From: Eledone cirrhosa
Taxonomy: Eukaryota
Length of the DNA: 39,207 nt
Reading direction: 5' to 3'
Assembly (NCBI GenBank): GCA_964016885.1
Contig: CAXHJY010001680.1
Location: forward strand, 1 to 39,207
Part shown: positions 2,243 through 38,435 of the stretch, in pieces
Position numbering within the stretch: the first letter of the stretch is position 1
How the letters are laid out: each line of letters opens with the position of its first letter
Position numbers and translations under genes: made by a program
The notes under the pieces: model-generated
The model's input: only the letters and a program-made list of their open reading frames with translations
Databases searched by the model: none
Told to the model about the DNA's origin: nothing

Positions 2243-2713
2243 AAGCAGAAGGGATATTCAATTTGTTGGTAATTCAACAAATATAAATGTTTATAACTGA
2301 TTCAGAGCACTCGACAGATTTTCTGGAGTATAATATTCAATGATATTAAATAAATGGAAACTATATTTATAAAACCATATTTATTCTATTATATATATTT
2401 CAAGGGTACCAAAACCTTGGTACGCTTTCATCAGATAAAATACAAAGTTTGTTTTATAAATTTTGACATAATCAAGAAAAGATACCTTAACGGTTCAAGT
2501 TTTTCTTGAATAGTGAAGGAAAAGAGAAGAAAAGTCAGATATTTCAAATTATTAAGATGAGTATGCAAATGAGGTTGAGGTATGGGGCTGAAAAAACGTT
2601 ATTTTTAGACGCTATGCAGAATTTAAATAATTAGGATATATGTATGTATGAGCAGGAAGAAGAAAAAAAGAAAGAAGAGCTTGTATTTACGTTAATTTAA
2701 AAGGAATTAACAA
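2243..2713 (-). mobile_element. Hammerhead-bearing non-coding element, family C, copy 1
   Basis: Reverse-complement homologue of 35819-36300; contains a hammerhead; ends in a TA run. Confidence 0.8.
2382..2442 (-). ncRNA. Type I minimal hammerhead ribozyme
   Basis: Minus strand: TATTTTAT-CTGATGA-AAGCGTACCAA ggtt TTGGTACCCTT-GAAA-TATATA-TA-ATAGAATA; helix I 8 bp, helix II ~10 bp, palindromic helix III. Confidence 0.85.
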
Positions 2714-3049
2714 TTTCGGCTGTGATCGAAAACAAACATATATATATATGTATGTATATTTATTTTTTGTAAGTTTTGGGGTTTTTTTTATTGTTTTTTA
2801 TTGTTTTTTTTTATTGTTTTTGATCATGCTGAGTAACACCTTCACTCATTCCTTGCTGCCCTCTCCCAACCTCCTTATCATCTATTGCACCATTTATGTG
2901 ATAAATTTTTGATGTAATATTTCATGTAATTTTTTATGACATTTTATGACATTTTATGACATTATGTGCTTCATGTGTTGTGTCTTTTTCTATATAGCGC
3001 TGGCCTGGTGACGCAGCTTGATGGAGTATGCAACTTTTGATATACTCTT

Positions 3050-3111
3050 GTTTATAGGCTCTGATGATTCCTGCCATAGGGTATGGATGAAACACTTTTA
3101 GCTAATAAAAC
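3050..3111 (+). ncRNA. Degenerate type I hammerhead ribozyme
   Basis: GGCT-CTGATGA(3061-3067)-tTCC TGCC atag GGTA t GGAt-GAAA(3089-3092)-CACTTTT-AGCT then AATAAA; helix II closing pair and helix III imperfect. Confidence 0.5.
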
Positions 3112-3258
3112 AATGTATTTCTAAGCACTCTTTGGTTGTTCCTAAAATTATAACGGCTCTGTAGTATACTAGTTATCCTACATTGAGCTAAAACCACACT
3201 GTCATACCAAGGGCAATATATCTGCGTGTCTGGGCACTTGATATATTTGTCAACGAAA

Positions 3259-4800
3259 CTATATATATATGTATATATATGTATATATATGTATATATAT
3301 GTATATATATGTATATATATATATATATATATGTATATATATATATGTATATATATATGTATATATATATATATATATGTATATATATATATATGTATAT
3401 ATATATATATATGTATATATATATATATGTATATATATATATATGTATATATATATATATATGTATATATATATATATGTATATATATATATATATGTAT
3501 ATATATATATGTATATATATATATATGTATATATATATATATGTATATATATATATATGTATATATATGTATATATATATATATATATGTATATATATAT
3601 ATGTATATATATATGTATGTATATATATATGTATGTATATATATATGTATATATATGTATATATGTATGTATATGTATATATATATATATGTATGTATAT
3701 ATATATATATGTATATATATATGTATATATATATATATGTATGTATATATATATATATGTATATATATATATATGTATATATATATATATATATATGTAT
3801 ATATATATGTATATATATATATATGTATATATATGTATATGTATATATATGTATATGTATATATATATGTATATGTATATATATATGTATATGTATATAT
3901 ATATGTATATGTATATGTATATGTATATATATATGTATATGTATATATATATATATGTATATGTATATATATATATGTATATGTATATATATATATGTAT
4001 ATATATATATATATGTATATATATATGTATATATGTATATATATATATATATGTATATATATATGTATATATGTATATATATATATATGTATATATATAT
4101 GTATATATATATGTATATATATATGTATATATATATGTATATATATATATATGTATATATATATGTATATATATATATGTATATATATATATGTATATAT
4201 ATATATGTATATATATATGTATATATATGTATATGTATGTATGTATATGTATATGTATGTATATATATGTATATATATATGTATATATATGTATATATAT
4301 GTATATATATATGTATATATATGTATATATATATGTATATATATGTATATATATGTATATATATATGTATATATATATGTATATATATGTATATATATGT
4401 ATATATATATGTATATATATGTATATATATGTATATATATGTATATATATGTATATATATATGTATATATATGTGTATATATATGTATATATATATGTAT
4501 ATATATATGTATATATATATGTGTATATATATGTATATATATATGTATATATATATGTATATATATATGTATATATATATGTATATATATATGTATATAT
4601 ATATGTATATATATATGTGTATATATATGTGTATATATATGTATATATATATGTGTATATATATGTGTATATATATGTATATATATATGTGTATATATAT
4701 GTGTATATATATGTGTATATATATGTGTATATATATGTATATATATTTGTATATATATTTGTATGTATATGTATATATATGTATGTATATATATATACAT
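3259..4800. repeat. ~1.5 kb (TA)n array interrupted by TG
   Basis: Visible directly; units of type GTATATATAT of variable length. Confidence 0.97.
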
Positions 4801-4808
4801 ATAAACAT

Positions 4809-4887
4809 AAATTATCGAGATTCGCATTTCGGCCCACGAAATAACGAAAAACAACCCCCGAGATGTGAGGCAAGTGCTCAATGATTC
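4809..4887 (+). repeat. TA-adjacent repeat terminus shared with 35088-35167
   Basis: TAACGAAAAACAAC..CCGAGATGTG.GGCAAG.GCTC.ATGATTCA present in both copies. Confidence 0.7.
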
Positions 4888-35055: not shown

Positions 35056-35818
35056 ACATATATATATATATATATATATATAAATATAAATTAGCGAGAA
35101 TCGTATTTCACCTCAGGAATTAACGAAAAACAACTTCCGAGATGTGTGGCAAGCGCTCGATGATTCATATATATATATATATATATATATATATATATAT
35201 ATATATAGAAGTGATTACACAACAGTTAGTTCACCATACAGAGAACAATTGTTTCACCTTAGCGGATTCCCAGCTCGTAATGAACATGGTTATACGTCCC
35301 ATGGACTGAGAGCTCTACCACTACGGATATTACCTTCCAGTGTTCTACCACTATATATATATAGATAGATTGGAGTTATCTTTTCCTTTACAATCGAGCA
35401 AACACAATTGACAACCTATATGATAAACTATATAACTTCGCTAAATTAACAATACTCTGAAAACATTTTCAATGTTGGAACAAAATGTTTGAATCTACAA
35501 ATTGTTCTCCTCTTACAACTTGAACTATGTCTTTTTCTTAAATATTTATGTAAAATCAGAATCCTCCGTAACTCAAATGAGAAATGTAAACAATTAATAC
35601 GTGGTTTATTTCTATAAAATCACCAATAATACTTATACTTGCACAATTATTAATCTATTTATATACTTACAACCTGTTCTAATGTAATAAGATAAAATGT
35701 ACTTACAACGATAATTCTTCATATAATCTAATTGATTATATATACAATATTATAACTCATAATATAGCTAAATAATTTTTTTTAAATTCTGTAATCATTC
35801 TCTACCATTCCTACAAAC

Positions 35819-36300
35819 TGTTAATCCTTTTTTAATTAACGTAAATACAAGCTCTTCTTTCTTTCTTTTTTCTTCCTACACATACATACATATATCCTAA
35901 TAATTATTTAAATCTACATAGCGTCTAAAGATGACGTTTTTTTTTCAGCCCTATACCTCAACCTCATTTGCATACTCATCTTAATAATTTGAAATATTTG
36001 ACTTTTCTTCTCTTTCCCTTCTTTCCTTTACTATCCAGGAAAAACTTGAACCGTTAAGATCCTATTCCTGGGTATGTCAATATTTATAAAACAAACTTTG
36101 TATTTTATCTGAAGAGAGCGTACCAAAGTTTTGGTACCCTTGAAATATATATAATAGAATAAATATGGTTTTATAAATATAGTTTCCATTTATTTAATAT
36201 CATTGAATATTATACTCCAGAAAAACTGTTGAGTGCTTTGAATCAGTTATTAACATTTATATTTGTTGAATTACCAACAAATTAAATATCCCTTTTGCCT
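35819..36300 (+). mobile_element. Hammerhead-bearing element, family C, copy 2
   Basis: Reverse-complement homologue of 2243-2713. Confidence 0.8.
36101..36161 (+). ncRNA. Type I minimal hammerhead ribozyme (CUGAAGA core)
   Basis: TATTTTAT-CTGAAGA-GAGCGTACCAA agtt TTGGTACCCTT-GAAA-TATATA-TA-ATAGAATA. Confidence 0.85.
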
Positions 36301-37109
36301 TTCTATATTTGTGTGTGTGTGTGTGTGTGTGTGTGTATTGGTGCATGTATGACAGAATGTTATATAATTTTTGCTGCGCATGCTGTATATACGTACGTTT
36401 GGGTATTTTTTGCGACGCTGCTATAAACATACATGTGCATAATTACATTGAGCTATATCTTTACTGTCATTTCTATAATATGAAGAGGGTGTTTAACTCC
36501 AACACACTCTAGCATTTTAATTCTTGTACATATGTGTGTGTGTGTGTGTGTGTGTGTGTAGCCATGACAAAACAATATCAAGTATGTGTTTGTGTCTGTT
36601 TCAATTTTTGCTACGCATTCTGTTTTTTTTTCTTTTTTTGTCTTTTGTTTTTTTTTCTTTTTGGTTGCATCACTGATGTCTACACGCATGGATATACACA
36701 ACACACACACACACATGTATGTGTGTTGTATACACACACACACACATGTATGTGTGTTGTATATATGCGTGTATTTATTGACGTAAACAATATATATTTG
36801 TTGTATGTTCCTGCGTGTGCGTGTGTCTGTTTGCAGTGTGTGAATGTACGCAGCCTTTGTGTACGGATTCAAACACTAACGACCGTTGCTAACGGCGGTG
36901 TGTTTACCAACAGTAACCACCACCACCACCCTAACATGGCACCCACGTGACATTGTTATGTCTGCTGCGGATATGAGTCGTAACGGCTGCTGCTGTCTGT
37001 CTGTCTCCTCATACTACAACTATTCCACCCCTACTTATCATTATTACATTACTACTGCCGCCGCCATCACTACCTTCACTACTGCTGCCACCACACTCAC
37101 CATTACTAC

Positions 37110-37460
37110 TGCCACTACAGCCACCACCACCACCATCACTACAGCCACCACCAACACCACCACTACAGCCACCACCAACACCACCACTACAGCCACCACC
37201 AACACCACCACTACAGCCACCACCAACACCACCACTACAGCCACCACCAACACCACCACTACAGCCACCACCAACACCACCACTACAGCCACCACCAACA
37301 CCACCACTACAGCCACCACCAACACCACCACTACAGCCACCACCACCACCACCACCACTACAGCCACCACCACCACCACCACTACAGCCACCACCACCAC
37401 CACCACTACAGCCACCACCACCACCACCACTACAGCCACCACCACCACCATCACTACTAC
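37110..37460. repeat. Minisatellite, 21-bp unit ACTACAGCCACCACCAACACC, in an (ACC)n region
   Basis: About nine exact units, then (ACC)-homogenised variants. Confidence 0.92.
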
Positions 37461-38183
37461 AAGTGCACAGTCATGTCTACACATGCTGTGCAACGTGTCC
37501 GCCCTGTCCAATCCGTTGCAGCTGACTAACTACGACCATTGCCACCATCATTACTACCGCCACCACCACCACAACTACAACTATTACCACCATCACTATC
37601 ACCACACCGCCACCAACATAATCACTACCATTACGAGTCAGTAAGGGGGTGAGCCGCTATGCGGTTAATCAAACGACATACTAAAAATAGCAGTCAAATC
37701 ACACCCAACTGTCTCAAAAAGCATGCGTATATATATATATATATATATACATACATACTTTCTATATATATGTGTGCGTATTTACATGCGGTTGTGTGTC
37801 TGTGTGCGTGTTCGTGTATGTAAGGGTGTGATCTTGTGAGTGCGCGCGCGCACGCGCACACACACACACACACACACACACACACACACACACACACACA
37901 CACACACACACACACACACACACACACACACACACACACACACACACACATGGATAACAAGTTATCGTTTTAGGTAATCCAGTTAGAGGTTGTGAGTACT
38001 CTGTGTTGGGGATAGTTTTAACGTGCGGCGTTATTTGGCTCAACAAGACGTTTCCTTAGTTAGGTGGCGAGTGTGCGAGAATTCCCATGTAGGTTATTCT
38101 TGGAGTAATAGTAGTGAAAGAATGAAGAGTAACATGGTCGGCTGTACAATTCTTCACTCTTACATTATATATATATATATAAT

Positions 38184-38435
38184 TTAAAGGTTAAACAAGG
38201 TTCAATGAATAAATCAAAGAATAAAGTTTTACAATAGATTGGAAGCACTCCACAGCTTTGGTTTTCCGGAGTTATTAATATTAATTCAAAATATTAACAG
38301 AAATAGATATTCGTGTGATCAAGTATATTTTATTATACATAGCTCAGTACCTCTGAAATATCTTCAACAGTACGTCCTCATCAGATAAAATAAAATGATG
38401 CATGACATACCCTGACTAAGTAGATGGTTAAGATT
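38184..38435 (-). mobile_element. Family B element, diverged single-arm copy with damaged hammerhead (38326-38392)
   Basis: Minus: TATTTTAT-CTGATGA-GGACGTACTGTTG..GAGC-TATGTA-TA-ATAAAATA; GAAA mutated and helix II disrupted. Confidence 0.75.

Follow-up and report, generated by a model that had tools for sequence, protein, structure and literature searches.

The contig CAXHJY010001680.1 of Eledone cirrhosa (positions 1 to 39,207, forward strand), one whole contig of the 3.0-Gb assembly GCA_964016885.1 and referred to below as the window, contains six hammerhead ribozyme motifs near TA runs, and raises the question of what elements carry these motifs and how the ends of such insertions are made. 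A first-pass annotation had proposed non-autonomous, ribozyme-processed retroelements targeting TA microsatellites. It was found that the motifs are probably the hammerhead-bearing 3' ends of truncated or folded-back copies of Hydra-clade Penelope-like elements (PLEs), which end just upstream of hairpins that are likely to position the reverse transcriptase (RT).

Identification of hammerhead motifs

A scan of the window with a type I hammerhead descriptor (CUGANGA, a paired helix II, GAAA, an AUA triplet and helix I) returned exactly six motifs, the same six with intact cores that had been annotated initially. A chance origin was rejected, as in 300 block-wise dinucleotide shuffles the descriptor matched on average 0.01 times per window and never more than once. 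Family A has one motif at 2382..2442 on the minus strand (core positions C3/H17 at 2434/2390, predicted cut after 2390) and one at 36101-36161 on the plus strand (36109/36153, predicted cut after 36153). The family B motifs lie at 17927-17997 on the minus strand (17989/17935) and at 18106-18176 on the plus strand (18114/18168, predicted cut after 18168), and those of family C have cores at 34576/34538 on the minus strand (predicted cut after 34538) and 34712/34750 on the plus strand (predicted cut after 34750). The cleavage sites put forward at first pass (18168, 34750 and 36153) were exact in position. In B, as in C, the two cores form the arms of a single fold-back insertion, so that the six motifs represent four insertions.

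All six have the features of a type I hammerhead (core CUGANGA, GAAA, UH and three helices), with helix III formed only as an intermolecular palindrome. Helix II pairs in each motif as reported initially, but the helix II sequences are not unrelated as had been supposed, since families A and C have the inner stem GTAC...GTAC in common. Helix III, given earlier as 6 nucleotides (nt), is a self-complementary 8-mer in 5 of the 6 motifs, while the copy at 17935 pairs at 6 of 8 positions. The 8-mer is specific to each family, and the family palindrome was kept in 52/62 in B and in 46/48 and 24/25 within the C and A clusters, respectively. Self-duplex energies of helix III were -10.5 (B), -3.2 (A) and -2.2 (C) kcal/mol, the hammerhead fold was the lowest-energy monomer structure in none of the six motifs (0/6), and the ribozymes of these families are predicted to cut only as dimers.

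Exact core patterns were found genome-wide 5,732 times for A, 18,887 times for B (subfamily included) and 3,292 times for C, counting cores rather than insertions, with no matches to reversed controls. Rfam, which had been suggested as a means of confirming the motifs, gave no hammerhead model among all 30 matches for 34500-36400 or among the 150 matches listed, of 310, for the whole window; its microRNA matches in the window reflect microsatellites and fold-backs.

Continuation into RT-encoding elements

The statement that no open reading frame (ORF) is associated with the motifs held within the window, where a tblastn search for a related ORF was empty, but not in the rest of the genome, where the families continue into ORFs encoding RT and a GIY-YIG endonuclease. 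A related ORF was found within 1.5 kb in 9 (A), 9 (B) and 3 (C) of the 29 best genomic matches per family, counted in either orientation and with some belonging to neighbouring elements. Longer stretches contained whole elements of A (L094), C (L091-L093) and B (L100), all with broken frames, and a whole element of a B subfamily (L252) with an unbroken ORF of 800 amino acids (aa). [quoted passage not shown] A2, a sister family of A (77% in the pseudo-long terminal repeat, pLTR), has an unbroken 737-aa ORF (P0001, at locus L136) and a 1.5-kb 3' UTR, and occurs in tandem and inverted arrays (L131-L138, L139-L178). It is very young, as all 150 scored matches to its endonuclease were identical. 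The link to PLE pseudo-LTRs and retrotransposition drawn at first pass was supported.

Most copies were short, with 5' limits forming a continuum from 209 to >1,800 nt (90 loci). Fold-back junctions were unique at each site in family C (8/8, window duplicate removed) and family B (18/18), and a master fold-back element was rejected because the junctions differed at 26/26 sites. No master short element was seen, and short copies would instead arise anew at each insertion. Given full-length Hydra-type copies in each family, continuous 5' limits and unique junctions, the earlier view of these families as non-autonomous lineages was not supported.

The Hydra clade, as defined in the text of Craig et al. 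2021 (PMC8557442), has a C-terminal endonuclease, the motifs RWK, DKT and CxCX5C, no CCHH, CxxC and CxH, hammerheads and (TA)n targets. A single ORF with RT and, C-terminally, a GIY-YIG domain was found in P0001 (737 aa) and family B (800 aa), with broken equivalents in A and C, and the motifs YRDD and VY..Y.G..R..H..E..N were present in P0001 and the family B ORF. An alignment was made of 93 sequences around P0001 (92 from 120 relatives listed). The N-terminal RWK-type motif reads R-W-R or R-W-T/I in the present families, and in the alignment has W in 75 and K in 40 or R in 28 of 93 sequences. DKG is replaced by DKT in A2, B and C and by DKI in the single decayed A copy read. The CxCX5C linker (C596, C598 and C604 in P0001) was kept in 79-85 of 93 sequences and is also found in A, B and C; there is no CCHH, that is, no cysteine pair between the two GIY-YIG core motifs, and the CxxC and CxH around E and N (C694/C697 and C721/H723) are conserved in the alignment. 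The hammerhead lies in the pLTR, and insertion is into (TA)n. Atlas neighbours of P0001 carry HTH_animal, GIY-YIG and RVT_1, and its closest named relatives, among the matches listed, were from Argonauta hians. A structure model of P0001 from the alignment had a predicted local distance difference test score (pLDDT) of 91.9, compared with 31.6 for a single-sequence model; a PDB search with the single P0001 sequence gave no match.

It is therefore very probable, from the motifs and Atlas neighbours, that these families belong to the Hydra clade. Naiad was rejected, as it has an N-terminal endonuclease and no canonical hammerhead, while the endonuclease here is C-terminal and hammerheads are present; Neptune, Nematis and Penelope/Poseidon were set aside because they are marked by the CCHH endonuclease that is lacking here. 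A hammerhead and (TA)n preference are given in PMC8557442 for Hydra-1_Obim of Octopus bimaculoides, which weakens the suggestion that such elements were undescribed in this lineage, although by eye Hydra-1_Obim does not belong to family A, B or C.

Other Hydra-type and PLE sequences were seen beside these families. Family D (L179-L208; 7,020 pattern matches) is likewise of Hydra type. Its hammerhead combines a UUGANAA core (U3-A8) with a long helix II, and its helix III, of 5 bp, could function in the monomer; in 4/30 loci the base at position 3, facing A8, is C. The family is present in the window as two fold-backs, at 20694..20897 (5' half of the hammerhead core missing, hairpin 1 at 20827-20853) and 32620..32810 (hairpin 1 at 32730-32756). 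Family B ORFs, including that of L252, contain an Asn/Thr/Ser-rich insert of approximately 80 residues before the linker, resembling the Asn-rich inserts described for rotifer Penelope elements (PMC3846280). A different RT and GIY-YIG element at 385-2307 (minus strand) of L092 adjoins B and C copies and, having cysteines inside the endonuclease core, belongs to another PLE clade.

A twin hairpin downstream of the hammerhead

The further motif that had been noted downstream of the hammerhead in all three families was present, and proved to be a bulged hairpin: RCUC, an inner stem-loop, a 2-nt bulge, GAGY and then RCU. The window contains 8 sites with an inner stem of at least 3 pairs, compared with a shuffle mean of 0.17 and a maximum of 3. 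Over all loci examined, 305 matches fell into 34 clusters, of which 17 were multi-copy. The scan itself required inner pairs 1-2, and covariation was scored at the positions left free; across the 17 multi-copy clusters the outer pair was A-U in 9, G-C in 5 and unpaired in 3, the third inner pair was paired in 15/17, and the first bulge base was U in 17/17.

At every tandem junction read in A, A2, B, C and D the hairpin was duplicated between the hammerhead and the start codon, and the unit order was the same in all five (L195 in D): ORF, 3' UTR, hammerhead, hairpin 1, hairpin 2, start codon. Hairpin 1 lies approximately 105-115 nt from the core, hairpin 2 a further 80-100 nt or so downstream and approximately 40-60 nt upstream of the start codon. 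The exact A2 hairpins occur genome-wide 610 times (hairpin 1) and 307 times (hairpin 2). Inspection by eye of the six new consensus sequences in PMC8557442 revealed the hairpin clearly in Hydra-2_Amil, Hydra-1_Ajap (twice) and Hydra-2_Ajap and imperfectly in Hydra-1_Crog and Hydra-1_Obim, while it was not seen in Hydra-1_Amil.

Position of insertion ends

An end just before hairpin 1 was termed short and an end just before hairpin 2 long, and ends were counted in loci not chosen by their ends. For A2, 3' ends were obtained from 40 of the first 49 endonuclease matches (9 previously retrieved were left out), and all 40 lay at a hairpin, 19 at -10 to +1 of hairpin 1 (with TA microhomology counted in at +1) and 21 at 3 or 7 nt before hairpin 2. 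Family D (n = 30, chosen by the upstream core) gave 13 short, 13 long, 1 read-through and 3 other ends, and family B (n = 37) gave 18, 15, 2 and 2, respectively. The ends in family A (n = 21) were 10 short, 3 long, 0 read-through and 8 other (13/21 at a hairpin), and those in family C (n = 24) were 8 short, 4 long, 0 read-through and 12 other (12/24 at a hairpin), many of these 12 being a diverged subfamily. A TA run was located within 40 nt of 36/40 A2 ends (the other 4 were not located by the script) compared with 694/5000 random 40-mers. The initial observation that ends lie in or next to TA runs was borne out as (TA)n targeting, except that the window copy with the hammerhead at 36101 terminates in a short TA that gives way to a TG run.

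None of the 40 A2 3' ends lay at the predicted ribozyme cut, and no 5' limit fell within 30 nt of it in 30 A2 copies chosen by hairpin 1, of which 10 stopped 85-101 nt upstream of the core and 8 ran off the locus. On these counts the proposal that ribozyme cleavage sets the insertion ends was rejected, and the description of the elements as ribozyme-processed was not supported. It was also observed that 5' limits cluster at short palindromes 55-100 nt upstream of the hammerhead core (L269-L298; B and C fold-backs), and a stop at this position could be either a transcript start or an RT stall.

Head-to-head pairs in these sets, whose classes were assigned by hand, comprised 25 long/short, 1 long/long, 0 short/short and 5 unclassified pairs among 31. 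Long/short pairs were thus 25 of the 26 classifiable, a statistically significant excess against 50% (P = 4e-7). A separate tally of 35 long/short, 5 long/shorter (one duplicate removed), 2 long/long and 2 other pairs came mostly from loci chosen for a long end, and the 31-pair set was relied on instead. Fold-back junctions were palindromic.

Copies in the window were mapped in the same terms. Those of family A (87-94% to whole elements) are a 5'-truncated 3' end of a Hydra-type PLE at 2235..2716 (minus strand; 87-90% to ORF-bearing L094 and L099), which has a long end in TA and hairpin 1 at 2306..2329 (minus strand, motif scan), and a copy at 35367..36298 (plus strand) with approximately 730 nt of 3' UTR, a long end and hairpin 1 at 36214-36237 (89-94% to the 3' UTR and pLTR of L094, 91% to L099). 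The family B fold-back has an inverted arm at 17889..18029 (minus strand) with a short end and one helix III change in its hammerhead, and a direct arm at 18045..18296 (plus strand; 91% to L100, 86% to L252) with a long end, in which the 5' strand of hairpin 1 (18214-18241, plus strand) is changed. The inverted arm of the family C fold-back (34496..34638, minus strand) stops 19 nt before hairpin 1, and its direct arm (34654..34907, plus strand; hairpin 1 at 34812-34841) has a long end and is 97.6% to ORF-bearing L091 and L093.

Possible mechanism of insertion

These patterns suggest, with reasonable likelihood, a model built from sequence in which the RNA anchors two starts of reverse transcription. 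The GIY-YIG domain would nick both strands of a (TA)n tract, and two RT molecules, one per hairpin, would each initiate within the RNA, in AU-rich sequence lying a few bases upstream of its hairpin. The two complementary DNAs (cDNAs), primed on opposite (TA)n strands, would terminate prematurely, in many cases 55-100 nt upstream of the hammerhead core, and would be joined in the middle through short palindromes. The outcome would be a head-to-head repeat in which just one arm has the tail, and the hammerheads would not set the insertion ends. Short copies would lose the terminal hairpin at each round and so would likely be dead ends unless in tandem.

It is unlikely, though the next best account, that the hairpins act as DNA or cDNA signals, with the endonuclease cutting beside them or with snap-back second-strand synthesis stalling and so setting the short end. 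Antisense folds are about as stable as sense folds in several families, so that a role in DNA is conceivable; the Drosophila virilis Penelope endonuclease needed the tail for DNA recognition (cited in PMC11167929), and self-priming, proposed for head-to-head palindromes in PMC3846280, would suit the palindromic junctions seen here. However, full-length arms of approximately 4 kb bear the short end opposite much shorter arms with the long end (L094, L100, L132-L134), which is impossible by snap-back copying of the shorter arm, and the two arms of L136 adjoin at hairpin 1 and together span the unit with no overlap; both arrangements favour two starts over snap-back. Less probable still is that the hairpins are promoter, termination or RNA-processing signals, with transcripts ending before them and RT starting at ordinary RNA 3' ends: the closeness of hairpin 2 to the start codon and the promoters reported in pLTRs (PMC3846280) would fit, but the one end of each kind per insertion (25/26) would be left unexplained. 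Self-propagating, non-autonomous retrozyme-like elements with ends made by hammerhead cleavage are very unlikely and largely refuted, for although 70/82 cores lack a same-sense ORF in reach, most copies are short, B and C 5' limits cluster near 250 nt and animal retrozymes have been proposed to derive from PLE pLTRs (bioRxiv 10.64898/2026.07.22.740005), the window has no direct tandem arrays of short units, B and C junctions are all unique, A2 ends are never at the cut and the sequence is continuous into autonomous elements.

Several observations weigh against the two-start model and the Hydra-clade reading on which it builds. The hairpins are weak (-3.7 to -8.4 kcal/mol), 2 of 9 fold otherwise in isolation and the sense hairpin is not clearly favoured over the antisense; the clusters are related, so that the covariation counts do not represent independent events. 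In A and C, which are older families, a class could be assigned to only about half of the ends, in part owing to divergence of their subfamilies from the reference, and TA microhomology blurs ends by several bases. Among 82 unselected cores sampled in genome order, with 2-3.5 kb of upstream sequence examined, a same-sense ORF was found in 12 (C 2/24, A 1/21, B 9/37). Neither P0001 nor seven ORF pieces matched Pfam RT or GIY-YIG, and a PDB profile search gave only a retron RT, weakly (E = 0.015).

More tentatively than the two starts themselves, it may be proposed that an undescribed duplicated RNA signal loads the halves of an RT-endonuclease dimer, each of which uses a separate start site to prime from one nicked (TA)n strand. 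On the same tentative reading the signal (RCUC, stem-loop, UN bulge, GAGY, RCU) may be conserved from octopods to corals and sea cucumbers.

Other features of the window

A small family B fold-back without a hammerhead lies at 34916..35059; it consists of an inverted piece (34916-34952) and a direct tail (34955-35059) that contains hairpin 1 (34976-35003). A diverged C-related copy at 38176..38495 (minus strand) has a hairpin at 38244-38272 and a seventh core at 38384 (minus strand) that has lost GAAA. The same hairpin occurs at 38885-38908 in a family E fold-back (38733..38940) and at 4873..4901 (minus strand) in a further repeat, F, which ends in TA; TA-flanked repeat ends of E and F with the motif were seen at 38733-38940, 13590-13660, 4776-5140 and 35080-35170, and in repeat E a minus-strand CUGACGA core is accompanied by an irregular helix II. 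Several elements are nested inside or at the edges of TA-rich arrays at 30104-34499 (4.4 kb) and 3260-4803 (1.5 kb).

A long interspersed nuclear element (LINE) fragment with RVT_1 and C2H2 fingers, which we take to be RTE-like, lies at 19141-20760 (minus strand) and is interrupted by a family D fold-back. A 447-nt piece is duplicated at 96% (428-874 and 18440-18883), an abundant repeat of approximately 150 nt, probably a short interspersed nuclear element, was found at 9586-9750, 10358-10508, 22909-23099, 24848-25017 and 28191-28382, and there was a weak tRNA match at 29017-29074.

Comparison with known elements and significance

Inversions arise in L1 twin priming from two primers on opposite target strands; here, the second start would differ in lying at a fixed, hairpin-marked site, and the arms often overlap. 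Animal non-LTR retrozymes are similar in being short, non-coding and PLE-related with a type I hammerhead, but form direct tandems of short units, whereas copies in the window, single or head-to-head, have an ORF-bearing parent with which they are continuous; retrozyme arrays were rejected as an identity because only full ORF-bearing elements were seen in tandem.

The families have in common with the Hydra elements described in PMC8557442 a single ORF with RT and C-terminal GIY-YIG, the protein motifs, a hammerhead located in the 3' region and (TA)n targets, and copies likewise occur as partial tandems and in inverted form. They differ in unit length (approximately 3.3-4 kb compared with generally <3 kb), by eye in hammerhead and N-terminal sequences from Hydra-1_Obim, and in having thousands of copies, a very young family included. 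The Poseidon element PAc of Anolis (Frangieh et al. 2024, PMC11167929) is alike in that two 3' ends bound an optional tail, targets are AT-rich and the hammerhead does not define the insert ends. Its protein is described there as nicking and extending both strands, with two internal RT start sites bounding the tail, a dimer predicted and the hammerhead dispensable. The PAc tail is 30-40 nt, with start sites in one AC-rich stem loop inside the ORF, while the tail here is approximately 80-100 nt and non-coding, with a separate copy of a conserved hairpin just downstream of each end. One-arm tails and junction palindromes are described in PMC3846280, where they are interpreted as self-priming. 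The minimal PLE hammerheads of Cervera and de la Pena 2014 (PMC4209133) are likewise type I with a palindromic helix III suited to dimers, occur as many divergent families per genome and in inverted pairs 100-700 bp apart, and include the U3-A8 core variant found here in family D; by contrast, of the three families here only C has G-C at position 10.1-11.1, A and B having A-U or G-U instead, and AUA serves as the triplet.

The clade with its hammerheads and (TA)n targets is already published, as are the optional tail and an octopus member, and as a transposon discovery the result is modest; its value lies in mechanism, with the twin hairpin probably an overlooked cis-signal. No description of the twin hairpin or of the long/short rule was found in a search of the published literature, which did not extend to Repbase, Dfam, most subscription papers, most supplementary figures of PMC8557442 or the supplements of the other papers; the word 'hairpin' is absent from the main text of that paper, and the main text of PMC13282606, on 31 recently active Penelope-like families in O. 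vulgaris, mentions neither Hydra nor hammerheads. Retrozymes are tied to pLTRs in bioRxiv 10.64898/2026.07.22.740005. For annotation, the genome holds tens of thousands of such cores, and Rfam and Pfam flagged none of those tested. One-sided tails and head-to-head repeats are stated as an open question in PMC8557442 and PMC11167929, and the hairpin predicts both ends in five families; the unbroken 737-aa protein of the very young A2 family makes direct testing in vitro possible. If the proposal is true, programmed double priming would account for the head-to-head repeats that Penelope elements form as well as for their optional tail, and a telomerase-related RT would gain a defined RNA anchor.

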